Positions 13,828 to 64,000 of a DNA stretch of 64,000 nucleotides are shown in pieces. The stretch lies in the NCBI GenBank assembly GCA_036172245.1, contig JAYWIR010000005.1, forward strand, positions 3,224,001 to 3,288,000, in the 5' to 3' direction. The position numbers and the translations under genes are program-made. Within the stretch, counting starts at the first letter, position 1. Each line of letters begins with the position of its first letter. Under the pieces are notes generated by a model. The model ran no database searches. It was given only the letters and a program-made list of their open reading frames with translations, and was not told the origin of the DNA. This stretch comes from Raillietiella orientalis. Lineage: Eukaryota.

Positions 13828-15367
13828 ATGGACATACTTGATGACATATTGAAAAAAGATCATCCTGTTTACATGGAAGTTTTTGAAAAGTTTCACATGT
13901 ATACTCTCTCAGATTTCTCATCACCTCCCTTATCAAGTAAATACTATATTAGTTTAATGGTAAAATTGATTCAGAATTGAAAGTACACTTAAAATGTTTT
14001 TTGGTTAGGCAATATCCAGACATAAATGTTTTGAGTTGCTTTCATATTTCATAAGTAAATTCCATGCTGCAAATGGGGAACCAGCCTGGTTGAGAGACAG
14101 AAGTAATGTGCCAAATAAGTTAAACATTTTAAGAAAAATCAATAAGATACTAGCACACCGTCCTTGGTGCCTGAATAAAAGTTGCATAGAGGTATTTTTC
14201 GGAAATCATCATTTTCAACAGGTTAAATTCTAGTTTAGGAACTGAATCGAGGACCAGATTGCTGGAGTCTTCCAGAACTCATGCTCATCATTGTCTTGAT
14301 TGTCCATTTTCACAGCCTTTGTACTTTCTTAAGTGGTTGCCTTGCATTTGATGAAAACAAAACAGCAAGGAAATTCAAAAATCGAGATTTGGGAGATTTT
14401 AAAGAGAAATCCAAAGGTCAGTTTTTGATTTATTTTAATTTTTTGCACAAATGTACCACACTGCATCCAATTTGCAGTATCTGCAGTGATACTTTTGTTC
14501 CAATATTACAGTTTACTGGGTTTTCACTCTTTAAATGATCAGTTCTCTATTATGTTTAGATGAACAAAGTCCTGTGAAATTGCTGCAAGCAATGAAGACA
14601 CTTTGCCAGACAGACATCTGCATTTGTCCAGATGAACAAGTAGCTTTCACAGATATGCAGGAAGGAAATGCACAGCTGATTCCTGAAACTCCATGTATTG
14701 TAGAAAGTTCCAGTGAGGATCTGCAGGTTCTGCTGGATGATCCTGAATATATGTATGAAGATTTTATCAAAAGGCAAGAACCATGCCAAACTTTTCGTGT
14801 GCAGGTCAGGATTTTGCAAACTGCAGATCAATACAATTAATAGGGTTGATAGGATTATTGCTGGCAGCAGCATGGATTTTCTTTAATGTCTCAGTTGCAG
14901 CCTGAACTGGCATCATTGGTTGATGAAAAATTTCTTGTTGCTTCCACATTAACATATCACACTCTTGGCTGCCTTGATGATGTGGATACATATACATTTC
15001 GTAATGCAATTTGGAAATATGTGCAATCATTATATGGCATAAGGTTTGTATTCATGCCAATAAAGCAGTTGTCTCCAGATACTCCCAAATAGGCATGATG
15101 ATTTCAATTATCGTCAGATCAATTTACTTCTGGATATTCCTTTAAAACGTTTTATAAAAACTGCCTGTTGCTTTCCAGAATATGTTCAGAATTTGGATAT
15201 GTCTGAAGTCATGCCTGCATTCCACTTATCTGAAAAAGTAAAAGGAATTGTACAATTCAGTTCAATTGATTTATGTTTAGGTGCATCTCATGATTATGCT
15301 GTTTGAGGCACGCTTTCAAGCTGAGCTTCTGTATTCTTTGCGAATCCTTATGCAGTACATGACTTGA
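13828..15367 (+). CDS. SESN: Sestrin (PA26 family), 7 coding exons; additional 5' exon(s) possible
   Basis: Exons 13828-13959 (AG acceptor also at 13806-13807, so the start may lie upstream), 14009-14191, 14239-14416, 14560-14804, 14853-15043, 15093-15237 and 15281-15367 are all GT-AG with consistent phases. Translation gives ...YISLM|AISRHKC...LRKINKILAHRPW...WSLPEL...FRVQ|DYCWQQHGFSL...LTYHT...VDT...AIWKY...GIRHDDFNY...SEK|VHL...EARFQAELLYSLRILMQYMT*, matching sestrin motifs (LAHRPW, QDYxWxxHG, GIRxDD, EARxQAxLLY). Confidence 0.95.
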
Positions 15368-19193: not shown

Positions 19194-22100
19194 ATGCAAA
19201 CGATTAAATGTGTCGTTGTGGGCGACAGGTAAGCAAATTCCTGTTTGCGGATTAGCCGTTCGGCAGGTTTGGTGTCGTCGGGAGCACGGCTTTCCGGGAA
19301 AGCTCCTTCTCCCTCTGAGAGATGGTCGTTTGCCATACCTGGGTGCGCTCTCTCCATTTGAATTCTAGAAGAAACCTCTAATACTTTTAGTTGTATGCTT
19401 TTGAATTTGCCAAGGATGAGAGGGAGGGTACACATTCCAAAGAACGAGCAGTTGGCGTGGGTTTTTCAGTATCTCGCCGTCTCGTGATGGAAGGTCTCAT
19501 TTTTTAAACGGGAAAGTCGCTCATTCTTTTTGTGGGTGTATCAGACGTTTTTTCAAGTTTTTGCTTGGCATAGGAAAAGCACTGAAGCCAGTGACAAGGG
19601 AGAGATCGATAAGCTCAACGGGAGGAGGGTTGACATAGGGAAAGGGGAAATGAAAATGTAGAAATGGAGTGCTGACTGCTGAGCCTAGTTAACAAGTTTC
19701 GATAGTGGTTTCAATGGTTTTCGAGTCTTTTTTTCAAAAAATAAATAAATAATGAGCACCAAGTTTGGTTCGCGCCGAGCTTCCGGGTCTGTACAAGGAA
19801 AGAAAGCCAATAAGATGAATAAGATTCCTGGTAAATAAAACCTATTTATAGAGCTTTTGTAATTTCTGAGAAACAGTCCTCCAAGTAGATTCGACTAGGA
19901 AAAACATAGAAAAACAGTGGCATAACTTGGATTTTTTCTTCTTTTTTTTTTTTTTAAAAAAAAAAAGCAATAAAGTCCTGCAGGAAGTTTTGATTATAAT
20001 GAGACAAAAACACGATTTCCGAACGAGCTCAAATAGACCCAGAAAACTGGAGCAAAGATCTTGATAGTGAAGAATGGACAGGTCGTTAAAGAGACAGTTT
20101 TCGTAAAATGTGCCATGCTGGAATTAAAGAAGAGGTGGTGATTCGCATCAGTAAAAGAAAAGCGCTAAACTTCCTTTCTCAAACCTCAGGGAGGAGGGGT
20201 ATGAGAGTATGCGTCTCATCTAACCGGCTCATAGTCAACTGTAACGTGTGTGAAGCGACTTTATCAAGTGGTGGGGATAACTTTTTCTGTATACTTTGAA
20301 GGTATTGCAAAGCCCTTAATAAATGAATGAAATCTTGTTGGATCTTCCTGCCAGATTCCGGACGTATGATCAACTTGTCTTCTGTGATGCTAATGGCAAA
20401 CTTCTTCTGCATTGAGAAGCTTACTCGGTTTGATAACAGACACGTGTGAGAGGAGAGAGGGAAAACGAGGGAAAAGAGGATACCTGTTTGGAGTGACGTG
20501 TGGTTCTTCACTCTCCTGTTTTTCTAATCAACATTTTGATGATCCTGGTTGATCTGGAAATATTCTATGCACAAATTAGCTTTAAATGATCACCATCACC
20601 TTGAAAGTAGGAATAAGAGTGCAGTGTAATTATCTTAATCGGATTAGGTTCCAAGGAGAAAATGAGTTTTCACCCAGGTTTTCCTTGATATTTATTTTCC
20701 TTGATACAGGAGGCAAAACTTGTGTAAACAAAATATATATCATTGAACTTAAGGAACTTAAGAGAAGTCAGATGCCACAGGAACAAGCTTTTAAGTCCAT
20801 TTCCTGTTTCCATATGTCTTTACATTGAAACTCATCCTTGTGTCGCAGAATGCAGGTTTAAATCTGCCATCAACACTTCAGTAGATTTAGGTATAGAGGC
20901 GAAATTCTAATCTTTAAGAATGGGAGGTATCGTATTAAATTCCGCTCCTCCCCCCCCCCCCCATGAAAGCAAGACAGCTGAATCAAGATTATAAAAGTGA
21001 AAACGACGATTGCTTTCATCATCATTGCATCCCTCAGAATGCAATGTCCTTTGCGAAATGCAGCGGTCAACTTTTGCGGCAAGATGGCTTGATGGAACAC
21101 AGTTTGCAATCTCTCCGCTTTCTTCAGAAGTGGATACTGATACATCATTCTGAGTTGTGTGATCCAAGTCTGCGTGAGCATTCCTCCTAATCACAGTTTA
21201 AAAAACGATTCGATTCGATTCATTGAAGATTTTCATTTTTGATACGAATGGGAAATGGCACTGATCGAGCCAAAAAGACAAAAAATACATTTCATGCAGT
21301 CCTTTCTATCAGATTAGTTTACATCTTGCATACAAATCATGAGATGATTAGGGATTATTCCCATGACAGTTTGTAGAAACACTGACAGCGTTTTTTTCTA
21401 ATAATAGAAATTAGAAATAGTTAGCCAATCTATAGAAATAGATAGATAAACATTGGGGGAGGGGGGGGGAGGCACTGAAATATAGAAACGTTTCGAAATA
21501 AAGCTGGAATAAAGAATTTTGTACATGGGAGAGGAAATCAAATGATGCGAGTAGCGCTGCTCTCTCGGAGCTTAGCAACAAACTCTGAATTCTGATGCTC
21601 GTTTTGCATTTTTGATAATCAGCACACAATGCAAAAATATCACCGCCAACACAGCTCAAGTTCATCAAGACATTAACTGATGATGAAATAGATAACAGAC
21701 AACAAGGGCTTGAATAACAGATATGTGTCTTGTGTTTTCTGCTTGAAGAACTTCACCTTTTCTGTTTGACTAGAAAAAAACATTCACTCAGTTTATGAGG
21801 CTGATTCAATTATTCAACTGTCCAACGCTCCATTTTAGTTTCGCTGATGTTTCACATCCGTGAACGTTATGGTTTCAAACAGTGACCATCAGAACGCTCC
21901 TATGCATCTTGTATCCGGCAATCCTAACTAGTATTAAGGATAAAGGAATACAGCCGTCCTCTACCAACTTATTCCGATTTGATAGTTTTATCAATTTGAT
22001 GTTATATTTTGAGCACTGCTAATGAACATAAACGGGACTTCAAGACTGAGTCATGGATGCAGCAAAGTTTCCACTAATAGAAAAGTGCCTGATCATCCAA

Positions 22101-25100
22101 AAGAGAAAAAAAGAGCCGAATTTCCTTTGAAGAGTCAACAATTCGACAACATAGACAAATACAAGAAATCAGTGTTATTTATTATCTGAGACTCATTAGG
22201 CAGTGGGAAGGATTCGAAAATTGATCCTCCTGAGGAAAGATTAGCTATTATCTTAGGGAGCTTTAAAATTACTTACATAAGATGCTTTTAAGTGAAGTAT
22301 GTAGAGTGAAATAGCTGAACAGTCTTTCGATACTGCTCTTCTATTTCGAGGAGTGATAGATTCCAAATTCGATGTCATGTCAATTTGATTTCGAAGCAAA
22401 AGAAAGCAAAAGGCCCGCGTCGGAGGCCGTGTGGCTGCGGTGGTCTCCGCGCGTGGCGCCTCCAAGCGTCGTGGGTTCGAATACTCCGAAGGAATCGACG
22501 CAGTGCGTCGTGGGTTCCGAGTTCACCCCACAAGATGACGCTGGTTGACCTACATCCATCCGGGTGAGGCACTGGTAGTGGTTCAAACTGGGTGCACCCA
22601 ATGAAGACCGGGACAAATGAGAGTCGACCTCCGGGTCCTTCCAGGAATCAAGGAGTGGGGAGTTCTCCCCCCCCCCCCCCCCGATTGTGAAGGAGCGGAC
22701 CTTACATTCCGGGGGAGCTCTCCGCGTCGTACTGATGGAGTAGGTGTGTCGCCACCATCTCTCCAGGGAGTGCGGGGAAGCGAGCCGATCCCTTCGGGGA
22801 AGCTGCGTCCTTCTGAATTTCGGAAGCGTCCCTTCTGAGTTCTCTTCAGAGGCATAAAAACAGGAGCGGACCTCTTGCGGGGGATCCTTCCGAAGAAGAA
22901 ATTCCAGGATGGGATCCTTTCCGGGTTCCCTTCAGAGAAGAAAGAATGGCGCGGACACCCCGGGGGTCCTCCGGAGAGAATAAGGAAGGAGGATTCCCTT
23001 CTGGATTCCCCTTCGGAGACAACCAGGGTGGAGGTGATCTCCATTTCCTGGGATCCCTCCCCAGGCGTGAGAGGAACGGACTCCGAGTCCTTCCTGGATT
23101 CATGGGGCGGACCCCTCCCGGGGTACCCTCTATCTTGAAGAATTATCCACCCTCGGGTGGCGTGTTACCGTGTCGAAAGCAAAAGGATACGGATTCCGTA
23201 AAAGTGCTAAATAAAGCATGAAAGTTTGATTTATAGGACAGTAGTCAAGAATAATTTTGGCTATCAAGATTCATATTTCCATTTCCGCGAATGAGAATTA
23301 TGCCGTCAGAATTCATTAGTAAACAAAGGAGATTTTTTTCCCCCACGAAACAGCTGCAACCTCATGTTTCTTTTCAGATGTGCAGGAATAGGCGATTTTA
23401 TCCTGAGTTTCGTAAAGGGTTCCTATCCAACGGATCATTCGCCCATGAAGTAAGCCATTGCTTCTGTTTATTTAGTAATAATGATGGACTGAAATTGAAG
23501 ACAAGTTTGCTCAACTTGCGTAGGGCTGGAACCTTTATTAGGCGATGCATTTGTCGGTGCAGAACAAACTGGCAAATGCTAGTCTTGTAACCCGAGAACA
23601 ATTCTCCACCACAAACATGATTCAGGTAGATAAGAACTATTCTCATTAGGGAAACCTCGGCAGATCGGTGCCAACAGCATGAAACGAAAGATATTTGGTG
23701 AGAGAAGCAATAATCGATAAATGGATAGATAAATAAATGTAGATCTCAGTTGCCAATTTTCTGCTCTTCGTCTTGTCTTGAGCACGTATTGGGAAATTAT
23801 GCTGAAACTTTTTCAAGCAAGATAAAAAACATAATTTGAACGTACAGTTACCTCCAAAAGCAGCAGATTGGCACTTGGAATCTTAGCTATGGATTACTTT
23901 GGAGACTAAAGTACCCGTGCAATTCCTTAACCCGCCATTTTCGAACACGAGACTACTTTGGCTTGCATTCTGTTCCTCCATAAGGAATGCAGAAAAGTTG
24001 AATGCATCATGCCACAATGTTTGGAATAATAATTTCATTCAACATGAGGGGAGAGATCGAAAGAATTTCAAAAAGGAAAACCAAAGAGAAAATGAATGAA
24101 TATCCAAAGGAGCAAAAAAATCCTGAGAAATAAATTCACAGATATAATATCTGAAGAATGATGTCCAAGCTCGGAGAAGTCATTCAATATTTAATCACAG
24201 TATCTTCAATGGAGAGAGAGAATTTTGTTAGGGATCAGAGGATTTTTTTTTTTTTTTTACACCCGTCTAGGACAGGCCTTTCAAAGAAGAAAACTGATTG
24301 AAAACCAGACGAGAAAAGCACTTGGCAACTCGTCCAGCAATTGCGAGCACTGAAAGTCTTATGTGATGGTGAAGGCGACGAAATTCTGAAGACTCCAGCT
24401 GGCGATCGCAGTGGGAGTGGGGGGGAAGTGGGAACATAAAGGAAACACATTTCTCCGCAGTTTCAGTTGGATATAAATGTGTGGACGTGAATTCCCTAAA
24501 AGAAGCACCACATTCAGGAAACGAAAATGCACTTGAAATGAAAACGAAAGCTTCTCTCTGTGTCGATCCGGAAAGGCGACGGATGGAGTGAGACTTTTGG
24601 AACCGAGGGGTTGGGTTGTTTCTTGCCAAAAGAAACACAATTGGGAAAATTCCTCAAAGGAATCTACAAAAGAAATCCTTTACTGATATGACGGGCAAAA
24701 GAAAACTCCCACGAGGAAAGTCGATTAGCTTCTTTGAGATCACGATTGCAAAGAGGAATTTTCCAGCGCTTTTGGTATGCCTGAATTTTCGGATTAATGA
24801 GAACAGGTCTCAATCACGTCTTTCCTCTCCTATTTTTTAAAATGCAAAATACCATAGTGAGCAATCGCTTTCAACGAGCTGACCATTCGCATGTCTTACG
24901 CTCTTTTTTCATACTTCCATTTGATGCATTTCTTCCAGAGAATACTTTCTTAGACTAATTCCTAATGGACGAAACATATGTCTACACTCTTGAGGGCTTG
25001 TTTTCATTGCACTGTCTTCTTGAAGCTGCTTCCCTGCAGAAGACATTTTCATTCTGCTTATGGGAAGATCAAAGGCAAAAAGATTTGAAGATCGTTTCAG

Positions 25101-27664
25101 AACACACTCCATTTTCTCGACTATTGGTCTCCTTTCTTTCAAAAAACAACTTGCTCAGTTTCCGAGCTGCTCTATAATTCAGCTCTGTTCGCTGAACATT
25201 CAAGCACAGTTTTCAGTGACCACTCAGGTTTGTGTGTGCGTCACCTTTGTCTCACGCCCGAAGTCGCGCACTTCTCTTATTGAAACTAAAATTTAGTGGA
25301 TATGGGTAATTTTTCTTAGCAAGTCTGAAATCGCAATTCTTCCATTGAAAGCTCTCAACTATCTTACATCGGAAATCATTCCCTCATATAGGTGAGAACC
25401 GGTTTCTCAACTTGGACTTGTCACGTCATATCTGCATCGGACATGCTGTGTTGGGATGCTTATGGGAACGGTAAATGAATCTGAAAGTCAACTATTTCAG
25501 ATAGCATGTTGAACCTTCCCTCTCTGGTTATTCATTTTCTACTGATTTGTCCTTCTTCTCTGCTTCCCATTTTGTACATCATAGATTTGCTATACATTTC
25601 CCTGCCATCAGCTTTTTTCCCCAAACAGTTGTAAGCTTGCCATAAATCACACACGTTCAGCTGTACCTCTGCTTTTGTGATGGTTCTAAAGCACTGTAAA
25701 TAAGCAAGCATTCCTCAAACATAAGTTTTTACCAGCTTTATTTATTTATGTATTTATTTGGTGTAGGTATTCTAACCATTTTTTCCTAATAATTCCTTCA
25801 AGCCTCATATCTTTCTTGATAACAGCTTTATTTGGTTTTAATGGATCATTCATTTGTAAATAGGAGCCCATGTTCCTATTTATTTTATACCTGCTTTCTA
25901 ATGAAAGGTGTAATGATACTGATAGCTATCTGTGTTCGGGCATTTTCAGTACTCTAGAGATTGAGAGCGCTTTGATGACAAAAGAAGACAAAAGAAGGAA
26001 ACCTGAAGGATAAGCCAACACAATTGCCAGCTGAACAGGTGAAATCCTAGTAATTCATGAATAACGACGAGTATCCTATTGGATTTGTATTCTCACGAGT
26101 TGCCAACTGAGCTAAATTTTTAGGAATCTTTCCATAAAAACCAAAGAAATAGTCCAACTGCTTTCAAAAAAAAATGAAAAACTCTCTGCATTTCACAAAT
26201 GAGAAAACGGATAAAACAAATGGATTCAAGATCAATCTCTTTAAGGTAAGATTCCAGAATCCAACCCAATTGGACCCTCGTCTATTGATCATGTAGGTAC
26301 ACAGTACTTTTGACAAAACGCTTGTCCCTTTCTGAACCTGTTGCAAAAACGAATGATGTTTTTTGGAGCTTCTTAAAAAAATAAAAATAAAAAAAAAGAG
26401 AAGGCAAATTCAAGTTCTCACAAGAATCATTAGGCTGTTTTGTTTTGGGGAATGCCACGTACAATCTGAGTTTTTGAGTGAATGGAAGAAACTCATGAAA
26501 AGTGAAATGGAACTTTGGTAAAGAGAAGTGGTAAATAAAGCGGAAGGCCGAGAATAAACTTTTGATCAAAGATAAAAAAAAAAAAAAAGGAACGAAAAAT
26601 CAATTAGTTATTTCTCTGAGAAGAAACAGCAGATTGATAAAAACGCGAAATATGTAAAAATTGAAGTTTTCTATGAAAACAAATAGTTTGGACATAGAAC
26701 GTAGCTCGTAGACTTGCTATTCAGAAATAGAATTCGCTCTCTCCACAAAAATCCAAGAAAAAAAGGTTTTCACATCAGCTGTCCAAAAAAAACAAAAACA
26801 AAAATGAAGGTGCAAACAAAACCATGATTTCAGAGGAACAAAACAAATTGTGTTTTTATGGTCCAGTGGTGTTCTGATTTCGTGTTTGGGGAAGAACGCA
26901 TCTCGTTAGTCTGATGTTTCTAGGTGAACTGGGTCGTGCTGGGATCCGAACATATCTGACTGGATCATAGGGAAAACAGACCGGAAGTAGACGTTTAGAA
27001 TGAAAATCTTACATGTGTGTTTCTAGAATATCCAACAACACCGTGACGTACACTGTGGATGGGAAAGCCTATGTCATTGGAATATGGAATGTGCTTGACC
27101 AGTCTTCTACAAGACTTCGAACTCTTTCGTATCCGCAGACGGTAAAGCGAGCCACCTATCTTCACTGTAGTATTTTCCAGAGAAATAGGATATTTTCATC
27201 ATATGTTTCTCGGTTGTCCACCCAAAATCCTATGCAAACGTCTTGGACAAGGTGACTAAGCAGAATCCTCGTGTTTAGCAAAAATCTGTCGAAATTACAG
27301 TGGTATCCTGAAATAAGAAGACATACTGCCGATACCCCTATTATTTTATTAGGCACCAACACTGATAGGAGATATAGCTATCAAACCGTGCTGGAGTTGC
27401 GCAAGAATGTTTTGGCTCCTCTTTTGTACGCCCAAGTAAGATTCTCACGATGTGAATTTGGCTGAATTCGCTTAGGGAGAGTCACTGAAAGAAGAAATCG
27501 GTGCGACGAAGTACCTGGAATGTAGTGCTGTCAAGATGGAGGGGATTGACGATGTGTTCCAGGAAGCTGTAAGGATTGTCAATACAATCCGCAAACCTAA
27601 GCAGGGACGTTCTCATTCACACCCGTTCTCGAAGATTTGCCGATGTTTTAAACAGAAGAAATAG
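19194..27664 (+). CDS. Divergent Rac-like Rho-family protein with degenerate G-boxes (candidate pseudo-GTPase), 202 aa, 6 exons
   Basis: Exons 19194-19228 (35 nt), 23378-23449 (72), 27027-27141 (115), 27189-27251 (63), 27301-27435 (135) and 27476-27664 (189) are all GT-AG and join into an open 609-nt frame: MQTIKCVVVGDRCAGIGDFILSFVKGSYPTDHSPMKISNNTVTYTVDGKAYVIGIWNVLDQSSTRLRTLSYPQTDIFIICFSVVHPKSYANVLDKWYPEIRRHTADTPIILLGTNTDRRYSYQTVLELRKNVLAPLLYAQGESLKEEIGATKYLECSAVKMEGIDDVFQEAVRIVNTIRKPKQGRSHSHPFSKICRCFKQKK*. Rho hallmarks are IKCVVVGD, RLRxLSYPQT, KWYPE, the Rho insert and KYLECSA. The first four exon sizes follow the Rac pattern (35/72/118/63). Confidence 0.9.
22414..23174 (+). mobile_element. 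SINE-like retroelement with tRNA-like head, flanked by 12-bp target-site duplication
   Basis: GC-rich 761-bp block in an AT-rich intron. Identical GAAAGCAAAAGG lies at 22402-22413 and 23175-23186. It has an A-box-like TGGCTGCGGTGG near 22432, a B-box-like GGTTCGAAT at 22474 and a 3'-terminal hairpin CCACCC-TC-GGGTGG. Confidence 0.65.
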
Positions 27665-31929: not shown

Positions 31930-34900
31930 ATGGTAGATGATAGGTAGAATGTATTGTATCCCCATGTAGAATGGAGCATTTTGACCTTGTTTCTGGTATT
32001 TAACGAGTTTGTGTATATGCTTTGTTCGTTGGACAGCATGAATGTGTTGACATTGGACTCTAAGGAAAATAGAGTTCAGAATGGCAAAGTGAAGGATAGA
32101 TCTCGATGGGTCCGATTAAACGTTGGAGGAAGATATTTCCTAACAACCAAAACAACGTTGAGTAAGGACCCGAATTCATTTTTGTTTAGGTTATGCCAAG
32201 ACGACCCAGACCTTAATTCAGATAAGGTATGCTGCTTCTAAATTGTATTTAATGTGTGCAGAATATTATCAAAAAAACAATGTTATTTAGTCAATAGGTC
32301 GACTTCCCCATGTGTTGGTTGCCAGTGGTTGATAAGAAAATCAAAATTTTTAGAAAATGTTCACAAAACTTTGGATGTAGATCATTTCTCTTTGTTGTTT
32401 TCTGTAATGACAACTTTGTATTTTCTTATCCCCCAGAAGCTTAAAGGGTTTAATTCCTCGAATGGTTTGATTTGTAAAGTATCTCATAATCACATGTGAC
32501 TATTCCAAATGCCATTAATAGGTTGTTTTTATTAATTTGTAAAGCTATCTCTAATTAAATTTGGGACAAGTATGAAGGAAGAACTGATAAAATCTAGTTA
32601 TTGTAGAAACTTTGAAGATATTTTCCTTTTCCAGAACTAGTGGAACTTTTCTGCAACGATAGAATCGGCAAAGATATGATTTCTGACCATTTTTTCCGAT
32701 GTTTTTTTCATTTTAATTTAATTCCGAGTGCATTGGAAATACATTTCTTGTAGGTTATATGTAACTAGCACGAATTGCATTTTAAAGAATTTATGATACA
32801 TTTTATTGATTGATTATTTAGCAAAAGAATTTGTTTTACCCATGGCTGAAAACAGAACTTGATTTCCAAAATGAAGAGTGGATTGCTTTTACAGATGTAA
32901 TTATTATTGACTGCACCTAATCATTGCATGTATCCCTATGAAAACTTATGAATTAAGTTATTAAGTTCACTAATAATAATGGAAAGGAAGAGCTTCTAAT
33001 CCTAGTAATTAAGACACTTTTTAGACATTTGTATGCTTCACTATATGATTGCATGAATTCAGAAGAAGTTATATAACTTGAGTGATTCAAGAATTTGAAA
33101 AACTAAAATTGACAATCATTATTTAGTTGCAAATGATAGATCATACTATACAAGTTTTCATAGAATCCAGTCATGTATGCATTCAGGAACAATGTACATT
33201 GGATGAAATCATTTGTATGCATTTCAATATCAATCAGTATGAATTGTACATAAGCTACATATGTATGATTGTGATGTTTTTAACCAAATTCTCTTATGTA
33301 TGAAATTTTTTTGCTCCTTTGTGGTTCAGACCTTTAGGAGTTTCTAGAGAATTAATAAAATTTTGAATCTGTTCAATTTGGAAATGAGAAATTATCAAAA
33401 TGAGAAACTGACAAAAAAAATTGTAACAGAAGTATCGTTTTGAGTTTTAAATATTCTTTCATTTGTTTTCTTTTTTCAACTAAATGACCCAGAATTAGTG
33501 GATATAGAATGATTAGTGAAAGTTTTGGTAGTATGCAATATGGATTCAAGAGTGAGATTACTGCAGTTTAAGACTGTACGAGTTTCACAAAAACATGATC
33601 ATGCATGGTAAACATTTTGGTGCTTGAATGTTCTGATCAAAAAATTTTTTTGGAGAAATTCAAAGTGAAGGTTAATTTCAAATATACATTCAAAAAAAAT
33701 GTAGCAAGAAACTGCAAGCATTGTCATGATTATCACTGTGTGTTAACAATGCTGTGGCAGAGTTATTCTTATGCATGAAATGTGATGGTAAAAAGTTGTT
33801 TTTACCACACTCACCCACAAGTTGAGTGATCATAGCTGCAAAACAGAATGATTAAGGTTAAGAATACTGTACATTATAAAGAGAACAATTGACACTGAAA
33901 ATGCTTCAATTTTTTCAATAAAATACATCAATGAAACTATTTTATTTGATGAAGTCTATTGTTTGTTCCTATTACAGCAGCAAATAGTCAAGAATGTCTC
34001 ATAATAATATAATATTCGTTAGTGCACAATAATAATGATGTAATAAGAGTTGAATATTAGAAACCAACTTATGCTCTTCCATCATTAGAACAGCATTTGG
34101 AATGTACTTTTTTTAACAAAAAAAAAGTGTGAAGCCACATTTGAAATACTCATCATTCAAGTGTTGATATGGAACTGATATATAAGCTTGAAAAATAAAA
34201 GAATACATTTGTTATAAAACTAATTTAATGAATTGGAATTTTTGCTTTCATAGTTTTGTGAACAATTACTTAATAAAGTATGTAACAGTAAAAACTTTAC
34301 TATGTTATAGAACAGTATGTTAAATCCAGCATCATATTTGTCTCATGTAGTTTTTGAACCAAGTTATCATTTTGATAGTTCAATGTGCTTTATAAGTTGT
34401 TGATTTGATGATGGTGTTCATTTTAGAGTTATCTTATAAGTTATTAATGACTGTTTTGGATAGCATTCCTAAGTGAAGTCATGAGTAATTTGAAATAGAG
34501 TTTCAGAATATTGAAACTTATTAAATTCATTTGTTTCCTCACATCATGTTAACCAATTTTATGTCAACAAATTTTAATTTTTTCTGTTGTACTTAGGAAA
34601 GCATAATTTTAGTGTGTATTGGTTGAAAGTGATTCAGTATCTTTTGACTTGTGTTGTATTGCATAGATTTATGATTTATGTGCTTATTGAAGTGCACAAC
34701 ATGAGTGTTTATACAACAGCAAAGTATACTATATCAGTTTTAAAACCCTGTAAATTTTGATGCATTAGATGTGTTGATGCTGAAAGTCTTGGTGGTAATT
34801 TATAAATTCAAACATGCATATATTGCCTAGGATGAAACTGGTGCTTACCTCATTGATCGAGATCCAACATATTTTGGGACCGTGTTGAATTTTCTCAGGC

Positions 34901-38800: not shown

Positions 38801-41800
38801 AATGAGCACCAGAGAAAACAAAAAAAATTCATCCTAGTTTTATTTGAACGTTAATTTTCAGTCGATCATTGGAAACCAAAGGAATCGATCATTGTTCTAA
38901 ACTTTGAATAATAATCCAATAAAGGTACAGTTGATAGAAAGAGTTAATTTTTTTCCGTTTCCTCCGCAAAATCTGGTGCATGAAGCACTTCACTTTGTCG
39001 AAACATCACGCCCGATCACTGGAGCTAGCAAGGAAAACCTTCTTTGTTTTTACCAAAAACCGGTTCATTGCAAGGCGAAGACTTTCCACTGACTGCATGC
39101 AATAATTAAAGGCGTTGTCCACACGCTAAGTAATGTCGATCAAGCAAACAAGACTTCAGGCGTTTCGATGGATGAAAGTGGTCCAGCCGCGAAGCTGCTG
39201 AACCACTTCCATCCCGATGAAGAAGCTATCCCGATGACAAATCTCTAGGGTTACGAATCGGTTTCCACCACTTGACAGGACACTCAGGTTTCAAACGAAT
39301 TCCTTTCAGAGCACACCATCAAGACAGGTACACTGCAAGGCAGCTTCACCAAAGAAAACTTGTTCCGACATGATGCAAAGCGTTTGTTCCTAAAATCTTT
39401 GGAAGAAATATCGTTTTAGCATCAGTTTCTGAAACATCGACTAATTTTGCTTCTCTCGAATGAGCCTTGCGTAATGCCTGAAGTTCTTTCTTGCAATGAA
39501 TGCAATACCCTCCCCAAATGAACACCTTAGTGAATTACAGCTACTTCAGGAATTTGTCAGAATCTGTCGGTATTGGATCTCAAAAGAAACACACACATCA
39601 CAAGTTTTTGACTCTCCATGAATTTCGACTGCTTTCACTTCTTAAAAGAGCCCTTCAATAGCAATATAATAATTCGGCAACTTCAGTTTGGAACGTATTT
39701 ATAAGAAAACATCTAAAATGTCACAAAATTTCTTGTAGTTCTTTTTGTTGCTGTTGTTGTTTCCAGGATATTTCTTGACAAATATGTTTACAAAGTATCA
39801 AAGAATCTCTGGGCGGGGAAAAAGGAAGAAAAAAACCTGAAATATTTGCAATTGTAATTTCGAGTTTCATCGATTCAGGATATCCAGGAAAATATATGAC
39901 TGCATCGGCGAAGAACAAGAGCAGTAATACGTTTTGCGAGCTGGAAATGATCATCGGCGGAGATTCATAACAGCATGTTGTCAGGAAGAGATGTTTTCAG
40001 CGCCAAGATGTTATCAACCGCTTCAGACGTCGGCGAAGATCGTTCACGGCGGCATTCGCAACAGAAAACAACGCCGAAACATGCTGACTCCATGATCAAC
40101 AGCAACCAAGTTCCCGTTACTGAAGTATCTTCGGAACTTCATGCCAGCTGTGGATGAGCTAATTCGATTATTCACAATGACCCCGAGATACAAGAAATTG
40201 TGAACGGGACAGACCCGAAGACAACTAGCAGGAGGACATGGCTGAAGAGTAAACATCATTTATGCAACACTTGGAAGGCACCGAAAGGAAGGGACATTTC
40301 TCCAGAGAATAGTCCGCTGGCGATAACACCATTCACAATTCCGAGTCAGAAAGCAAATCACAATCGATGGAATGGAAATACTCTCAGTATCTGAAGTCCG
40401 GACCAGACCGAGTACCAGTAAATTTCATGTTGGGCTTCTCCTGAACTTCTAAAGAGTCTGGATGCCAACCCATTCCCATCCGGAAGGAGAAACTACAAGC
40501 AGTGCTTGACACAGAAAAATGTAACAAGACAAGTGGAAGGATCAAAAGGAGGTGATGAATCAGCCTTTATCTTCCACTTTTCCCCCCCCTTGGATTGATG
40601 AGCAACGAGCTATGAGGCAAACATTTCCGATTGGTGAAACAGGATCTTACGAATACACAACACACCTTTTTCCTTGCATGCATGCAGAAGTGGGAGGAAA
40701 GGTGGACCTCATGCAACTGAAAAGTTCAGTGATCACACAGAAAATGATACGGTGCACATTCGATACAGTCACCTTTGATAAAAGAAACTTTTCCACCATT
40801 TCCATTTTAATTTTTCTGCCATTCGATAAAGGAAGCCTTTTCTCAGCCGCGTTAAAGATGGGGGGAAATAAGAGAGATTCATTAACTATTCGAATGAAAG
40901 GCTAGATATTTTAACGTTGAATCGAAAAGGGAGGTAAAAGTGTTCGAAATGCAACGTGGATCCATCAACCATTTCGAAAATCGTGAAAAAAAAATGAAGA
41001 GAACCAAATGGGAGGCTGCGTCGCCCCACGCTGAGGTGTTCCAAAACACCTACAAACAGGATGGCTCGATCTGGAAGTTTCCTGAAATGGGGCCAGCTTT
41101 GCACTCGCCTCGGCTTCTGCAACAGTGACACTCGGAAAAGAAAAAAAAAAAAAAACACCATCGTAGAAGAAATCTTAAGATGGAAGGCCAAGGAAGTTCA
41201 TGTTCGGTTGGGATGCAATGGGGAATTTTTGGCAGATGATGGGTGGCAGCCGAGCCACTTCAAGGAAAGACATGGCATTCGTTTGTTAACCACATCCGGG
41301 GAAAACCTTTCCATTCCATAGCAAGAGAGAAAATGTAGCAGGTGGCTCTGGGGTTATGGAATGAGAGAAGTGGGGAAAGCGAATGAAATCACGTTCATGA
41401 TCTGGAAACACCATTAGGAACGCTCCTATGCAGCATGCAGGAGAGAAGATTTAGATGAGAGTTGGATGTTGACAAAGTTATTGACCATTCTTCCAATTTA
41501 GCAGCTACTGAGTGGCCAGAAAGTGTCCTCCTTCCTGTTCGTGATGTCCTTCTCCCGAGAAGAACACGGGAAAAAGCAATCGTGAAGAAGTTTGGATCAA
41601 ATTTTATAACGTATCATCATCATTTACCATGCACTGTTACTAAATTTGCTCATTTGATTATAAAAATGCATGCTACTGTTCCGCAATTTGGTTTCTTTTA
41701 TTTCACTATCCAAAATGAATGTTTTTTTTTTTTTTTCATTTCGACTACCCATCTCTATACAATCAACAACATTCTATAAAGGCAACGTTTTTACAATTCC

Positions 41801-49299: not shown

Positions 49300-50500
49300 C
49301 GTGAGGGCAAATAAATGAAAGACTGTAGACTGATTGCGATAAATCTGGATGAGCTGCAGTTTCGAATGAGATTGGGGTTAAACGCTCGAGGATATCTGAT
49401 AAACGAAGGAAACGGGGAGGATAACCGAGGTGCTTCGTTTGCAGAAATGAGTGCTGCGATTCTCAAAAAGTAATTCCTCAAAGCCTCCGAAGTTTCTTCC
49501 AAGATTAAACGCTGCTTCTGGTTTTGTCTTGTCTCCTCACCACGAAGAGAAACTTCTGCTGAAAGAGCTTTCTTTGTCGATATTTCAGCGGCAAGAAATG
49601 GAACTTCTTTTCAAAGGCTTGGCTAATTCATCCGGAAATTGATTCTATGATTCTCGGATCCATAGTACCGCTTCCAGTACGTGCTTCACCTTTCCCTTCC
49701 GGTTGCAATGTATCCCGATGACGTTGTACTAAACTCGCCAAAACACCTAGTCGCTCTGAAGTTATTCAGCATGCCACTGCATTGTATTTTCACATCATCT
49801 GCTTGCATCAGATTCTCAAGAAGGAAACAAAATGGCACCTGGGTTTTCTGCAGCTCTTAATATTCGAATGTATGGACCAGAATTGGTCTGCTTCGAGGCT
49901 ATAGGGTTTCGCTTTTGCTTCTTGGAACGATGGTCAAAACAATACTTTGCTCCACATTATCTATGATACCTGATACCAGCTTTATCGCAGAAGAAATAAG
50001 AGAGGCTGTCAATATTGGATATTAGAAATGTCATCTTCTAACTAGTCTTGAGGAACAAGAACTTCTTAATATCCGATTCGAGCTGATTTGTTTTCCTTTT
50101 CGAGAACTACTCAGAGGTATCTAGAACGGAAAGCATCGCTCATCTACTACTTATATCTCCTTAGTGCTGTATTTATTCTCTTCAATAATGCAACGAGAGG
50201 ATGCAGCGTAGTGCAAATACATTCGGATAAGAGGCATTCTTTTTTTTAATTCTTGCATTCATCAAGAGAAACCTTTCGTGAGCATCAGTTAAGAAGTAAC
50301 GAGGTAAAGAAATAAACGCAAAAAAATGCGATTCAGTCTAAAATCAATATTTCAGCAATTCTGACACTCTTGATGCCATTTTTTGCTCTCATCTTCCCAT
50401 GGATTAGCTAAACAACATCAGAGAATTTCTCCTTAACTTCTTCGAACTCCAAGCCATCCGGGAAGAATTCCTGGGACGACAATTTTCTGTTTCAAAAAAT
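49300..50500 (+). mobile_element. Highly eroded LINE ORF2 relic
   Basis: Weak collinear remnants: LFKGLANSSG (~FxxxSG), KWHLG (~KYLG), GTMVKTILCS (~GRxxLxKSxLxS). Confidence 0.25.
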
Positions 50501-50559
50501 TACACCCGCCCCCTCCATAAGTTTTTAGAGATAATCTCCTTAAAACTGCCCATCTCTCG

Positions 50560-51000
50560 ATCCTGGACATCGCGGGAAAGACTGCTTGGAGGCTGGAAGA
50601 CGCGCGAGTCGGTGGATGCTCCCACTCCGCGTGCTCCGGCTACGGGACTCCTTCGGTGGAGTGAACTTTTGAGCGTTGTCCTTGAGGAACTTGTGGTCCC
50701 TCCCCAATGTCTGGACACATCTGTATTCCTGCTGTCCTGGAGGCAGGCTCTCCAAGAACCCTGCTTCAGGACACGATGTCCTCCAAGAAATGCGTCGGAA
50801 ACAGCGCTCCTGCACCAGGAGGACACCGTCCGCGATTCTTCTTCCCCGAAGGACTCTCGTCGGGCGCACCGATCGCAACGAGATGTTGCATCTACTTTCA
50901 CCATCACGTCCCGCCATGTGCTCGAGACGACGACGCAGCGAAGGGAGGTCACCGATATGGCAGCCGCCTACATGAGGACGGCTACATGAGGTGGAAAGGA
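50560..51000 (+). mobile_element. Second, internally deleted copy of the 3' end of the same LINE family
   Basis: Shares blocks with 52800-53340: GAAC(T/C)TGTGGTCCCT, GCGCTCCTGCACCAGGAGG, GACGCAGCG(A/G)AGGGAG(G/A)TCACC and CCTAC(A/G)TGAGGACG. Confidence 0.6.
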
Positions 51001-51179
51001 GTGAAGAAAGCCGCATCCCTTGTATCCACCGTCCCTTTTATTTATTTTGCTTTTTTTTTTATTGCCCACTTCGCGGTAATTTTTTCCGGTTTTTTTTACT
51101 TATTTATAACGGTCTAGGTGGAGCGATGCGACGTCATCTCTCTCGTTCTTCCAAATTTTTTTTTGTGTTGTTGTTCCCT

Positions 51180-53400
51180 TCCACCCGCTCTGGACTTTCA
51201 GATATCCCGACATGCTGTTTCAGATATCCCTGAACTTATTTTGTCTTCGGTTGGGAGCCGGCGTGTTCTCAGCTGGTTTATTTCTGTTAAATAGGTGCTC
51301 CAGCTGACCGGGCGAGAAACTTCCCGATTCCATAGACGAAATCTCGCAGCCTCTAGCAAATTGGTCCATGCTTCTTCTTCTCATCAGTTAGAATTCTTTC
51401 CAAGAGAAACTGCTTAACAAATCTAAGAAACTGTAGAAAGTGCACATGGCCCCACGACAAAAGGAAAGAACAGAGCAGTGCATAGCAGAAGTGATGCTGC
51501 ACTTGAGGTATGCACGGTCACGTGCGTCTTCATCTTTCTCATCTTTGCGCACGACCTTTCGACCCTGCCCGAAGCAACTCTAGATGCTGCCAGTGTCCTC
51601 CAGGTGCTATTCCAACAAAGGAGAGCTTCTTCGTGCTTGAAGATTCCCGAAAGATCGAGAAACTGTGGATAAACAGGAGCCGCAGGAAGACCGCTCTTTC
51701 TGAACATAGTCGCTTTCAAATTGGCCTCACCTTTTCCTTATGTCAGACTCTGTCTCTTAGGTGTGGATTCCCATTCATTAGCTTCAGGGCATGTTCTGCT
51801 CTCACCACGTCGACTGTGACCGCGGATAGAATCTGGAGAGAGGCACCTTGTGAACAAGTTGCTACCTGGCTGAGGTTTCGACTCCATCAACCAGGTCTCT
51901 TCGTGCCTCCTGTTTGGGAATGCTCATAAACTGTGGAACAAGGAATGTGGCCAGCGTTGACCAGCGAAAGAGAAGGTAATCTTGTGTGAAACGCTAGGAC
52001 CAACTGCTCTTTCGCGCGAGTGTTCACAATCAACTGAGTTCTCCACACCTTCCGTTCTCTGGTGCCGGAATCCGGGCAGCAAGACTTGCAGCCGTCCCCT
52101 GCAAGAGGGCATCTTCCACTGCAGAGGACCGCCACCGCGGGACTTTCTTCTGCCACCGCTTGTTCACTCTTTTGGGCGCCCGCCGGTAGTTTTCCTCCTG
52201 AACGGCTGCATCTCTCTGCTTCTGCTCTGATTCCCCACGCGCTCCCCGCGTGCGTCACGTCCTGGCTCGACGTGAGCCCCGACTCCAGTACGCGCATCCA
52301 ACCCCCCGAAGAAGCTCTTGCCACGGCCCTGCTGGCTGCCACCTACCTTGCTCGCTCGTTGCTGTGTGCGCAGGAACCCTGTCTACTTTTTTTTCCCCTG
52401 TCACCTCTCTGGGCTTCCCCACCCCTATGCATCCTTCACGTCATCTCTCTCTCCTCCTTCCTCTAAGCAGTCCAGTGCTGTGCATCTTGTCTGACGTTTA
52501 TCCAAGCAGCATGCGAGTGCTTCGTCTTTCGACCCTCGGCGGCTTCAAAACTCCAGCTTTCATCAGCTCGAGACGTGGGCTTTCCCGGTTGCTTAGTTCC
52601 TCCTCCTCTTCCCGACCTTGCGAGGAAACGGAAATTTCTGCTGAGGCGTTCTCGCTTCTTCGCTCGACTCAAAGAACGGGTTCAACCACTGAGTTTCTTT
52701 TCTCTCCTCGGCTCTGAGGATTCGTTCCCTTCCGGCGTCGATCCTGCCGCATATCTGGGCGGGAATTCGCCTGCACTCTTTCAGGGCACCAAACTCCTAG
52801 GCGGCTGCACGGAGAGCGTGCCGCCACTCCGGTTCCCAGACGAAAGGACTTCCTCGGCGGGGCGAACTTTCGAGTGTTTCCTCGAAGAACCTGTGGTCCC
52901 TTGCTTGCGCCTGGAAACCTTCCGCGTACCCCTCGAGATGGGAAAATGAGGTGCTGCTGTTCCTACACTGGGGATTCCGGTGCAACCAAGCACCTTGTTT
53001 CCGGGAAAGCTGCATCCCCGAACTGTTCCAGGAGTGGGACGATGGAATCGATTCTGCACCTGCTTTTGGGTTGCGGTGTCCTCGATGAACTGTGGAGAAA
53101 CTGGTGCAGGAATGCCGTGACTCCGGCGCTCCTGCACCAGGAGGTGACGCCGCCGCGGGTCGTGGCCGGTGCCGCGACCCGCGGCGGTTCTCTGTGCACG
53201 ACGGACCGCCGGCCGGCGCACTGATCGCGGCGACGATGCGTTGCCGTGAGCGCAATCGTCACGGCCCGCCGTGTGCGCGAGAAAGGCGGACGCAGCGGAG
53301 GGAGATCACCCGAGTGGCCTCCACCTACGTGAGGACGCTTTCCAGGTGGCCTCACCTGGAAAGAAGTCAGATCGGAGACTGCAGGCATCTGGGGTCGGTT
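51180..53400 (+). mobile_element. Decayed L1/Tx1-clade LINE ORF2 (RT through C-terminal zinc knuckle)
   Basis: Collinear degenerate motifs across frameshifts: ALDFQ (51187, ~LDFxKAFD), LIFAHDL (~FADD), RASSCLKIPERS (~ASGLKINxxKS), VLWC..PLQEG (~FLW..PxxxGG), KNLWSL (zf-RVT-like) and SPNCSRSGTMESILHLLLGCGVLDELW (~CxxC..ExxxHxxxxC..W). Confidence 0.7.
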
Positions 53401-54412
53401 CTAGAAGGAAAGAACGACCGAAATCAGCGACTCTTTCGGATTGGCCGACCTACGTGTCGGAGGACGTCTTCTTGAGCTTCTTTTTGTTTTCCGCTGGGAA
53501 CCAATTCTTTGTTTGCGTTCCCAACTCGTTTGTTCTTGAAATGAGCTTCCCGGCGTGCTCGGGTGATCATTCCTGTCGCGTTGCACATCAGTTTCCATTC
53601 TGCCTCCGGGAGGTCAGGTCGACCGCCTTCCTGCACACCCGGCCTCCTCCTACTCCACCTCTCCCTGGGCCGTGCAGACGTACCGGGACTCTCGTATTCC
53701 ATCCCTCTCAGAAAAGCTTCCCGACTACCCGGATGGGTCGCGGATACTAAACTTGCCCAGGAGAATGCGTCTCTGCCAGCGTTCTCATCTGAGCCGTCCT
53801 CGCTTCCCTCTGTTCTGGCAGAAATCCCCCTTTCCTCCTCGCAGGAAAGGAAACTCTAAAGCTCCCGAGACCTGCTTCCCTTCACAGACCGCCTGGTTGC
53901 CTGCCGGCAGTCTTTCCGTTGCAACGTCTTTCCGCAATCTCCCATTGCCACATTCCCTCTTTCCTCCTCTTGCTGGGGGGTGGGTCGACGACCAGCCCCT
54001 CCCTAGTGCAGCTCCTCACTGCGTGCTGTGGAACCGAGCCTTGAGAGACTAGCACCTGCTCCAAGGAGCGGCACGAGTCCGAAGAAATCACTTATGTTGG
54101 AGGAGGAAAGGAGAAGGAGACTTGCGAAGCACCAACCAAGGTGTTGGTTCAGGCATGCGAGAGCGGAAAGGTTCGGAGTTCAGCCCAACATCAGGATGTT
54201 TTATCCTCTTTCTGTGTTTTGATTGTTCAGAAGGTTGCCGCTCTGGTAAGGAGTCTCTACCCAACCACACCTCCAGGCGCGTGATGTCATTCTTCCCTTG
54301 CAGTTCTCAGAAACAACGTTTTCTCCTGATAAGAAGAGGGGACGAGGCATGATGATGCCCATTATCAGCTGATCTCGATCGAAGGGAAAGAGGCACGAAA
54401 GACATCTTCTAC

Positions 54413-54429
54413 GTTTATTTCGAATAAAC
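54413..54429. terminator. Candidate netrin polyadenylation signal (bidirectional AATAAA inverted repeat)
   Basis: GTTTATT-TCG-AATAAAC. The minus-strand AATAAA lies about 190 nt downstream of the netrin stop. Confidence 0.4.
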
Positions 54430-54608
54430 CGACACAAAACCGTTTGCACCGCCATCATATGGAGGGTGCATTCTTCACCGAGTCCGTCCAGGTTCGAACC
54501 TGTGATGTTTTCAAGAACAGAAACCATTCGATTTGCTCCCGGAAGCTTGGGGAGGAAGGGAAGGGTCGATGCGGTCACGTGTCCATCGGCGTCCTCAAGC
54601 GAGCGCCG

Positions 54609-59549: not shown

Positions 59550-59666
<117 letters not shown>

Positions 59667-63600: not shown

Positions 63601-64000
63601 GACGGCGCAGATGAGGAACAGCGGGGGACGCCAGGCGGCTGCCGGCGCATCCAGAGGAGCGCTCGGTGTCCGCGGACCGCCCGGGAGCGGCAGCGGCCGA
63701 GGGAAGGAAAGGGTGCGTCCGCACGTGACTGCCATCTGCACGAGAGGGCTCATCGCCGGGCCGGTTCCAGAGAAAAGAGTCGGTGGGAGGCAAGATCGGC
63801 CTCGGCGGGGCTCTCGGGAGAACTCGCGGTCAGCATCCCTAGGGTCTCCTGTCGCTTTCGGCCGCGATCCCGACGGCCACCTCCTCCAGCAGAGGGGAGA
63901 TCGCACGGAAGGAAAACAAAAACAAAAAAGCTGCGGACCGCCTTCATGCGGCCTTTTAAGCTCCACGCATCGATCCAACCGTTTCCTAGGTTGACAAGAA
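60660..64000. promoter_or_regulatory. GC/CpG-rich island upstream of the recognised netrin exons
   Basis: Abrupt shift to very GC- and CpG-rich sequence (line 61021 is 49/60 G+C, versus 12/60 for line 33901), with GA/CT tracts and a plus-strand TATAAAAG at 62155-62162. Confidence 0.6.

Follow-up and report, generated by a model that had tools for sequence, protein, structure and literature searches.

PseudoGTPases are a small, recently recognized group, and the class-i examples known to us are ancient domains that cannot now be traced to a particular parent GTPase. p190RhoGAP pG1/pG2, CENP-M and AAGAB psGD, all placed in this class, are G-domain-like without G motifs, are conserved, and resemble any one GTPase only remotely. 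The class itself is defined by the absence of both nucleotide binding and GTPase activity (PMC12490416). ArlEM, a lineage-specific Arf-family putative pseudoGTPase of Microsporidia with mutated canonical motifs, has been proposed as a new class-i group on the basis of sequence and modelling (PMC13393502). Within the Rho family, Rnd and RhoH are reported to be loaded with GTP and constitutively active (PMC13236570).

Here we analysed a Rac-like gene in a 64,000-nucleotide window of the Raillietiella orientalis genome (contig JAYWIR010000005.1, positions 3,224,001 to 3,288,000). Like the class-i examples, its product is G-domain-like without the G motifs, and like ArlEM it belongs to a classical small-GTPase family and has mutated canonical motifs (PMC13393502). 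Unlike the class-i examples, it looks young, is stand-alone, and is still identifiable to subfamily (Rac), with no orthologue found; ArlEM, by contrast, belongs to the Arf rather than the Rho family, and its conservation throughout a whole clade is an argument for function. The original prediction had proposed six GT-AG exons joining into one uninterrupted 202-amino-acid frame. Exon coordinates and translation confirm this structure (Table 1): the exons lie at 19194–27664 on the forward strand and splice into an open frame of 609 nt (202 codons and the TAG) with no internal stop, and all five introns are GT..AG, leaving 10/10 splice dinucleotides intact.

Table 1. Exons and long introns of the Rac-like gene (positions in the window).
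Feature	Positions	Strand	Length	Content
Exon 1	19194..19228	+	35 nt	ATG, residues 1-11 (strand beta1, MQTIKCVVVGD), first 2 bases of codon 12; donor GTAAGC
Intron 1	19229..23377	+	4149 nt	GT..AG
Exon 2	23378..23449	+	72 nt	Phase 2; degenerate P-loop (R12, C13, A14, G15, I16, G17), helix alpha1, rewritten switch I (HSPM)
Intron 2	23450..27026	+	3577 nt	GT..AG
Exon 3	27027..27141	+	115 nt	beta2-beta3, Trp56, degenerate G3 (NVLDQ), one-codon deletion in switch II, conserved RLRTLSYPQT
Exon 4	27189..27251	+	63 nt	Strand beta4 and start of helix alpha3 (DIFIICFSVVHPKSYANVLDK); 47-nt intron upstream
Exon 5	27301..27435	+	135 nt	Helix alpha3, strand beta5, degenerate G4 (TNTD), full-length Rho insert; 49-nt intron upstream
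Exon 6	27476..27664	+	189 nt incl. TAG	beta6, intact G5 (ECSA), alpha5, basic Cys-containing tail without terminal CAAX; 40-nt intron upstream

For exons 3, 5 and 6, best matches were sought among solved structures (PDB), and Rac1/2/3 are the top matches of all three, in agreement with the idea of a stand-alone, intron-bearing gene derived from Rac. Over Rac1 residues 97-141, exon 5 aligns with no gap (E 3e-8) and scores 36 bits for Rac1/2/3 against 25.7 for RhoD, 24.1 for RhoG and 23.2 for Cdc42; it contains the Rho insert helix (beta5-alpha4) at the same length as in Rac1. Exon 3 matches Rac1 39-75 with one gap (E 0.0011; Rac 21.7 bits versus about 19.5 for TC10/Cdc42/RhoG), and exon 6 aligns from Rac1 residue 144 on (Rac1 32.7 and RhoG 32.1 bits, E ~1e-6), its score against Pfam Ras (PF00071) being 17.2 bits, under the cut-off of 21.6 for this fragment. 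Identity to Rac1/2/3 is about 47–51% in the aligned exons by hand count, and the protein is about 40–47% identical to Rac. The border between exons 3 and 4 falls at Rac1 residue 75/76, the position of the insertion in Rac1b, which is an alternative exon; on the Rac1b chain 1ryf, the alignments of exons 3 and 5 are offset by 19 residues.

We also scored every stop-free peptide from either strand of the window with a profile built from 22 divergent Rho relatives. Exon 1 ranked first of 78,459 peptides, exon 4 first of 52,250, and the exon 2 peptide (a 23-mer covering residues 13-35) first of 48,379, with a score of 18.1 against 8.2 for the runner-up (z 6.0). Searches by tblastn with P0005 and P0054 find exon 1, and tblastn evidence exists for exon 4 too; canonical Rho proteins as tblastn queries missed exon 2 at E<=1. 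Judged by these scores, exon 2 is homologous though very divergent, the similarity of the exons to Rac/Rho is far beyond chance, and the gene is by descent a member of the Rho family, Rac subfamily.

Trp56, the RLRxLSYPQT stretch of switch II, G5, the N-terminus and a Rho insert of equal length are shared with Rac1/2/3, whereas G1, switch I, G3 and G4 are destroyed, one switch II residue is deleted, and no CAAX box is present. Alignment to Rac1 and relatives reproduced the original motif readings throughout, from G1 and switch I to G3, G4 and G5. The P-loop reads GDRCAGIG where the relatives have GxxxxGK(S/T): Lys16, kept in 22/22 divergent Rho relatives, is Ile, and Ser/Thr17, kept in 21/22, is Gly. 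Switch I reads HSPMKISNN, with Met for Thr35, and G3 reads NVLD(Q) for DTAG, replacing Asp57 and Gly60 (D57N, G60D), and is followed by the one-residue deletion relative to Rac1. G4 has TNTD where Rac1 has TKLD, so that Lys116 is lost (K116N) and the Asp is kept, and G5 is intact (ECSAV, containing CSA). Besides G5, the residues retained are Gly10, Asp11, Gly15, Gln61 and Asp118.

Thus the nucleotide and Mg2+ contact residues are gone, as had been claimed, to a degree that at the motif level is unmatched in the 22 divergent Rho relatives. With Rnd1-3 and RhoH, the protein would share the status of a non-cycling Rho-family paralogue, and it shares a replaced Gly12 (PMC13236570). However, those proteins keep their binding motifs, whereas here the P-loop Lys/Thr, Asp57, Gly60 and Lys116 are missing, Gly12 has become R12 and the catalytic Gln61 is kept, which is not the Rnd/RhoH-type pattern of intact binding motifs combined with changes at Gly12, Gln61 or both. 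The proposal that the divergence goes beyond RhoH/Rnd therefore holds at the motif level, since these are described as GTP-loaded (PMC13236570). A different exon 2 or 3 that would supply a canonical GxxxxGKT or DTAG was looked for by tblastn and by a profile scan of the window, and none was found there.

The C-terminus reads ...CRCFKQKK followed by TAG and has no CAAX box, while 9/11 aligned relatives end in Cxxx; this is an addition to the original account. RhoBTB proteins, too, have an atypical Rho domain without CAAX, and 4.4 kb downstream of the Rac-like gene the same strand carries an exon of BTB type. A RhoBTB fusion was nevertheless rejected: a TAG at 27662-27664 closes the Rac-like frame, and the BTB-type exon starts anew with a separate ATG at 32038 and is orthologous to KCTD5 (BTB_2 type).

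Taken together, we hypothesize, with a probability of roughly 55%, that this is a real intron-bearing Rac duplicate encoding a maintained protein in which the Rho core is kept and binding of guanine nucleotide and Mg2+, as well as prenylation, are lost. We read the gene as a class-i-type pseudoGTPase derived from Rac, and think it probable that its product is a "pseudo-switch" free of nucleotide. Because homology extends over the entire G domain, we infer that the GTPase fold is adopted; the core that would be retained comprises beta1, beta4-alpha3, the Rho insert, G5 and alpha5. The loss of nucleotide binding is deduced from the motifs: K16I, T17G, T35M, D57N, G60D and K116N are predicted to remove the phosphate, Mg2+ and base contacts, so that neither guanine nucleotide nor Mg2+ would be bound, and the missing CAAX box predicts that the protein is not prenylated. 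In consequence, it would not cycle and would not be controlled by GEFs, GAPs or RhoGDI. Its action, if any, would be that of a constitutive protein-binding module with activity set by abundance, as in class-i pseudoGTPases. That small GTPases without nucleotide are usually unstable speaks against this reading. The new charged or bulky pocket residues (R12, I16, V58, L59, D60) may occupy the vacant nucleotide site, stabilizing the fold.

The coding sequence carries none of the lesions of a pseudogene (stop, frameshift or splice loss) in 609 nt and 10 splice dinucleotides, and the sole indel is in-frame. In a neutral simulation of random substitutions starting from this CDS (5000 runs, with indels and splice sites left out), the frame was still stop-free in 24/5000 runs after drift to 50% amino-acid identity and in 4/5000 after drift to 40%. 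Divergence is also distributed unevenly. Exon 1 keeps 7/11 consensus residues, at least as many as each of the 22 relatives, and exon 4 keeps 12/21, at least as many as 21/22 of them, whereas exon 2 keeps 6/25, a level equally low in only 2/22. In a post hoc contrast between exons, exons 1 and 4 with the G-domain part of exon 6 keep 42/68 against 6/25 in exon 2 (Fisher p 0.002), where the conservation of exon 6 is inflated because the reference relatives were picked by similarity to exon 6 or P0028. Measured by these consensus residues, divergence is not uniform, exon 2 being the outlier and the core exons being as conserved as in bona fide relatives or better. Over the conserved columns alone (shared by at least 75% of the 22 relatives, n=36), those of the pocket or switches are kept in 7/14 cases and the others in 18/22, a contrast that is not significant (Fisher p 0.067); the seven altered pocket columns include K16, T17, T35, D57, G60 and K116.

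Few simulated frames stay open and the divergence is uneven, and together these sequence patterns speak for a Rho-fold protein that is maintained and independent of nucleotide, rather than for a pseudogene that died long ago. The original prediction of selection rather than random decay thus gains indirect support, from the intact frame and splice sites at about 40–47% Rac identity and from the concentration of divergence in exon 2, and maintenance by selection would follow from these. The simulation rejects long neutral drift only, and functional divergence followed by recent death still fits.

That second course defines the alternative that survives best, which we consider unlikely but take seriously: a recently dead unprocessed pseudogene, long functional as an atypical GTPase, in which the G-motif changes are partly or wholly decay and the disabling lesions are yet to come. 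A very recent loss of function could so far have left no lesions. The G-motif changes are also exactly those expected to destroy function, and no canonical poly(A) signal is nearby, the forward strand having no AATAAA before 29500, about 1.8 kb past the stop. Moreover, the protein sits alone at the end of a long branch (end branch 1.16), and no orthologue or close paralogue appeared in the collections searched. When exon 6 was searched by phmmer against 1.84 billion representatives, the 64 hits reached at most 62% identity over 34–43 residues; full-length relatives are about 40% identical at best, and 46 metagenome loci matched only over the conserved first 48 residues of exon 6. In favour of the maintained protein, the genome is not generally fast-evolving: an exon of the neighbouring KCTD5 gives 65 bits over 42 residues against human KCTD5, with about 32/42 identical by hand count. 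Against a recent death, however, stand the intact 10 splice dinucleotides and 202 codons with their single in-frame indel, and the conservation of the core exons next to the outlying exon 2. Six independent changes at six key pocket residues, with no disabling lesion elsewhere, would be an unlikely snapshot of early decay.

If the maintained pseudo-switch is real, a scaffold or decoy function is something that we can only infer. The best guess on its target would be competition for a Rac partner touching Trp56 and the conserved latter half of switch II, helix alpha3 or the insert, although the identity of any partner is speculative. One doubtful version is a "dominant-negative" Rac kept by selection, that is, a stable, nucleotide-empty and lipid-free mimic that would titrate a Rac regulator or partner, such as a GEF recognizing Trp56 and the conserved switch II half, or a partner that binds alpha3 or the insert. 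Of the switch-region surface that serves GEFs and effectors, half is rewritten, which weakens this specific idea. Were it true, the abundance of a decoy, and not nucleotide state, would tune Rac signalling; this would be a new layer of Rho control and a mode that, to our knowledge, has been described for no animal.

It is improbable that the protein is instead an atypical switch outside class-i, binding another nucleotide, or binding weakly through G5, Asp118 and the Gly10/Gly15 backbone. RhoBTB3 reportedly binds another nucleotide, and the retained G5 (CSA), Asp118, Gly10, Asp11, Gly15 and Gln61 are compatible with such a role. However, the P-loop Lys and Ser/Thr that nearly all relatives keep are both replaced, as are Thr35, Asp57 and Gly60, and in Rac1 a K16R mutant is described as deficient in GTP loading (PMC13236570).

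Least probable of all is a gene-model artefact in which the real transcript skips exon 2 or uses exons beyond the window: exon 2 is a multiple of three, so that the frame does not force it into the mRNA and stays open when it is skipped, and it stands 4.1 kb and 3.6 kb away from the flanking exons and escapes tblastn with canonical Rho queries, but it is the best Rho-like peptide for residues 13-35 window-wide, on the right strand and in the right order and phase with strong splice sites (acceptor TTTCAG, donor GTAAGC), other exon candidates are absent from the window, and exon 1 opens with ATG and a Rac-type N-terminus.

If the preferred reading of a maintained pseudo-switch is right, a recognizable Rac without phosphate, Mg2+ and base contacts and without a lipid anchor would represent an early stage in the passage from switch to nucleotide-independent binding module, and a natural experiment on substitutions that stabilize an empty Rho pocket; a freshly dead duplicate would be ordinary.

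A GC-rich stretch of about 0.9 kb lies inside intron 1 (22350-23250), with no second copy within the window. The short introns of the Rac-like gene (47, 49 and 40 nt) speak for the gene model, as they match those of the neighbouring conserved sestrin gene, which were read by eye as 43–48 nt.

The original prediction of six GT-AG exons carrying an uninterrupted 202-aa frame was confirmed by joining the exons by their coordinates: all introns of the Rac-like gene start with GT and end with AG, and the spliced frame comprises 609 nt, that is, 202 codons plus a TAG, and is free of internal stops. Intron lengths are 4149, 3577, 47, 49, and 40 nt, and the three tiny ones are normal for this genome; the conserved sestrin gene 4 kb upstream has introns of 43–48 nt (read by eye, four of this size and one of ~141 nt, all with comparable splice sites). 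This sestrin (PA26) gene (window 14009–15303, + strand) is represented by five ORF pieces matching Pfam PF04636 (E down to 2e-23), and one of its exons is ~48% identical to human sestrin-2. Skipping the 72-nt exon 2 of the Rac-like gene would leave the frame intact and give a 178-aa form without P-loop, alpha1, and switch I. Intron 1 contains a GC-rich stretch of ~0.9 kb (22350–23250) with poly-C tracts and frames open on both strands; it occurs only once in the window and gave neither a tRNA-like nor a Pfam match.

Exons of the Rac-like gene (window coordinates)
Exon	Position	Strand	Basis	Length
1	19194–19228	+	sequence reading, joined by coordinates	
2	23378–23449	+	sequence reading, joined by coordinates	72 nt
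3	27027–27141	+	sequence reading, joined by coordinates	
4	27189–27251	+	sequence reading, joined by coordinates	
5	27301–27435	+	sequence reading, joined by coordinates	
6	27476–27664	+	sequence reading, joined by coordinates	

Judged by its homology, the Rac-like gene is a Rac paralogue by descent. When single exons were searched against all PDB chains (phmmer), Rac1/2/3 ranked at the top, and exon 5 aligned with Rac1 97–141 without gaps (36 bits, E 3e-8, followed by RhoD with 25.7, RhoG with 24.1, and Cdc42 with 23.2 bits), indicating that the Rho insert is present at full length. Exon 3 aligned with Rac1 39–75 with one residue deleted in switch II, and exon 6 with Rac1 from residue 144 onward, RhoG being about equal. 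By our own count on the alignments, identity to human Rac1 is ~47% for exon 3 (17/36), ~47% for exon 5 (21/45), and ~51% for exon 6 (18/35). Exon 2 was matched by none of 64 Rho proteins (tblastn, E ≤ 1) and, being too divergent for tblastn, was scored by a profile scan, in which all 23-mers without a stop, from either strand of the window, were compared with a position profile (residues 13–35) of 22 divergent Rho relatives. Its peptide ranked first of 48,379 (score 18.1, runner-up 8.2, z 6.0), and the peptides of exons 1 and 4 likewise ranked first in the Rho profile scan of the window. The PDB matches bear out the proposed Rac origin. Exon 3 ends at the position of Rac1 residue 75/76, the site of 19 extra residues in the Rac1b chain 1ryf, whose numbering is offset by +2 on the exon 3 alignment and by +21 on the exon 5 alignment. 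In human RAC1, coding exons one to four presumably have the same lengths as in the Rac-like gene, allowing for a 3-nt deletion. On these grounds the Rac-like gene is an intron-bearing duplicate rather than a retrocopy.

Alignments with divergent Rho relatives also agree with the reading that G1–G4 are altered and G5 is intact, and the P-loop Lys is missing only from the Rac-like protein among 23 aligned rows. Retained are Gly10, Asp11, Gly15, Trp56, Gln61, Asp118, and the RLRxLSYPQT segment. The original prediction had not mentioned the CAAX box, which is absent as well: the C-terminus is CRCFKQKK, and 9 of 11 aligned relatives have a Cxxx end. The protein therefore departs from a functional GTPase at G1, G2, G3, G4, and the CAAX box. 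A different exon 2 or 3 supplying canonical motifs would overturn this reading, and none was found in the window, either by tblastn with Rho proteins or by the profile scan of both strands.

States of the GTPase motifs (residue numbers follow Rac1)
Motif	Rac-like protein	Reference
G1 (P-loop)	GDRCAGIG	22 relatives: Lys16 in 22/22, Ser/Thr17 in 21/22
Switch I	HSPMKISNN, Met replacing Thr35	relatives or Rac1: Thr35
G3	NVLDQ, then deletion	relatives or Rac1: DTAGQ
G4	TNTD	relatives or Rac1: TKLD
G5	CSA, retained	relatives or Rac1: CSA

In G domains of the Ras superfamily, Lys16 and Thr17 are ligands of the beta/gamma phosphates and Mg2+, Thr35 and Asp57 coordinate Mg2+ and water, Gly60 is the gamma-phosphate sensor, and guanine recognition falls to Lys116 and Asp118. 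Since five to six of these pocket contact residues are gone, the Rac-like protein is not expected to bind nucleotide with high affinity, while Arg12, Asp60, Ile16, Val58, and Leu59 might fill the pocket. An excerpt of one report describes Rac1 K16R as deficient in GTP loading (PMC13236570).

Such motif loss could reflect either decay or maintenance of the protein for another role. Neutral simulation from the Rac-like CDS by random substitution, with indels and the ten splice dinucleotides left uncounted, gave stop-free frames in 24 of 5000 runs at 50% amino acid identity and in 4 of 5000 at 40%, which makes it very unlikely that the gene drifted neutrally for long from a canonical Rac; the sole indel seen in the gene is in frame. 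Divergence is uneven among the exons. Exon 2 keeps 6 of 25 consensus residues, a level equally low in only 2 of the 22 relatives, exon 1 keeps 7 of 11 (at or above all 22 relatives), and exon 4 keeps 12 of 21 (at or above 21 of the 22). Exon 2 differs from exons 1 and 4 plus the G-domain part of exon 6 with a Fisher p of 0.002, the contrast being post hoc and the exon-6 conservation biased upward because the references were retrieved with exon 6. If only the 36 columns that at least 75% of relatives conserve are considered, 7 of 14 pocket/switch columns are kept vs. 18 of 22 others (p 0.067), a suggestive difference that falls short of significance. As a control, the neighbouring KCTD5 exon gave a 65-bit alignment with human KCTD5 across 42 residues (~32/42 identical by our own count), showing that the genome is not generally hyper-divergent.

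Taken together, the frame, the uneven divergence, and the conserved columns favour a Rac-like protein maintained on account of its fold, with a pocket that was given up or put to another use, and we assign a probability of about 0.55 to the reading that the gene encodes a Rac-derived, CAAX-less, nucleotide-dead Rho-fold protein. The interpretation originally proposed is supported in part. The main rival to this reading, that a duplicate of Rac died recently, is in our view less likely but keeps a substantial probability.

No orthologue was found by phmmer with exon 6 against 1.84 billion representatives, a library from which the Rac-like protein itself is absent; the 64 matches were all generic Rho relatives, and ten of them, belonging to a tunicate, fungi, a foraminifer, a flatworm, a nematode, and others, showed no taxonomic trend. 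A word-index protein search gave one candidate for exon 6 and seven for the sestrin exon, none of which scored or was an orthologue. Metagenome contigs held 46 loci matching exon 6, all solely via the conserved KYLECSA region, and the ESM Atlas returned generic Ras-family clusters. Ten relatives of P0028, a Clavelina 'Rac1-like' protein, were 35–40% identical to the Rac-like protein, no closer than others. A quick tree groups the Rho relative P0054, which has R12, NNTE at G4 (Asn at the Lys position), and no CAAX, with the Rac-like protein (SH-aLRT 87, long branches on both). We rejected P0054 as an orthologue, since it has only 10 rare states in common with the Rac-like protein vs. 9 and 8 for unrelated rows, and is equally close to P0022, another Rho relative. 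In P0001, a multi-domain Macrostomum protein, G3 reads DVSC and G4 reads TNSD, and in the relative P0015 G3 reads DTED; with P0054, these partly degenerate proteins, all from public assemblies, show that G-motif erosion is not rare in lineage-specific Rho paralogues.

Without nucleotide, the Rac-like protein would have no switch, and without a CAAX box it would carry no prenyl group and would not enter the RhoGDI cycle. Two tail cysteines and basic residues could instead provide palmitoyl or electrostatic membrane contact, and prenylation is described as replaced in such a way in microsporidian GTPases in an excerpt of one study (PMC13393502). CRIB-type effector binding is unlikely because switch-I residues 36–40 are rewritten; Trp56, alpha3, the insert, and the latter half of switch II are retained. 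We therefore favour a constitutive binding module independent of nucleotide, similar in predicted biochemistry to class-i pseudoGTPases, as defined in PMC12490416. Rnd and RhoH, unlike the Rac-like protein, are GTP-loaded according to an excerpt (PMC13236570); this distinction and the Rac paralogy drawn in the original prediction hold. A decoy for a Rac partner would be our best specific guess, a weakly founded one. ArlEM, an Arf-family member in Microsporidia, offers a comparable case of a putative pseudoGTPase proposed on sequence grounds (PMC13393502). Literature on pseudoGTPases with the Rho family or Rac, searched in a limited library by listings and abstract openings, showed no stand-alone Rac-derived pseudoGTPase.

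RhoBTB proteins differ, in that the Rac-like frame stops at 27664 and the downstream BTB_2 exon is separate; a RhoBTB-like fusion is ruled out by this stop and by the ATG of that exon. The exon (window 32038–32226, + strand), which follows 4.4 kb after the stop in the same orientation, is a KCTD5-type first coding exon with its own ATG, a BTB_2 domain, and ~76% identity to human KCTD5 over 42 residues; by this similarity it belongs to a KCTD5 orthologue. In human, RAC2 and KCTD17 lie close together on chromosome 22, so a Rac-KCTD linkage may be old.

Elsewhere, Rfam and ARAGORN gave no match on the whole window. In the 50000–64000 region, GC climbs from ~0.40 to 0.59 (52–54 kb) and 0.62–0.66 (60–64 kb), and long stop-free frames occur on both strands; it has no Rfam match and no Pfam match besides a UNC-6/NTR/C345C module (PF01759, E 8e-7) in an ORF at 54764–55267 (− strand) that probably represents an exon from a gene of the netrin, sFRP, or complement-like type. 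The region may be a GC-rich island or repeat. A weak Tc5/pogo transposase HTH match (40998–41318, + strand; PF03221, E 9e-4, below cut-off) is possibly a decayed DNA transposon.
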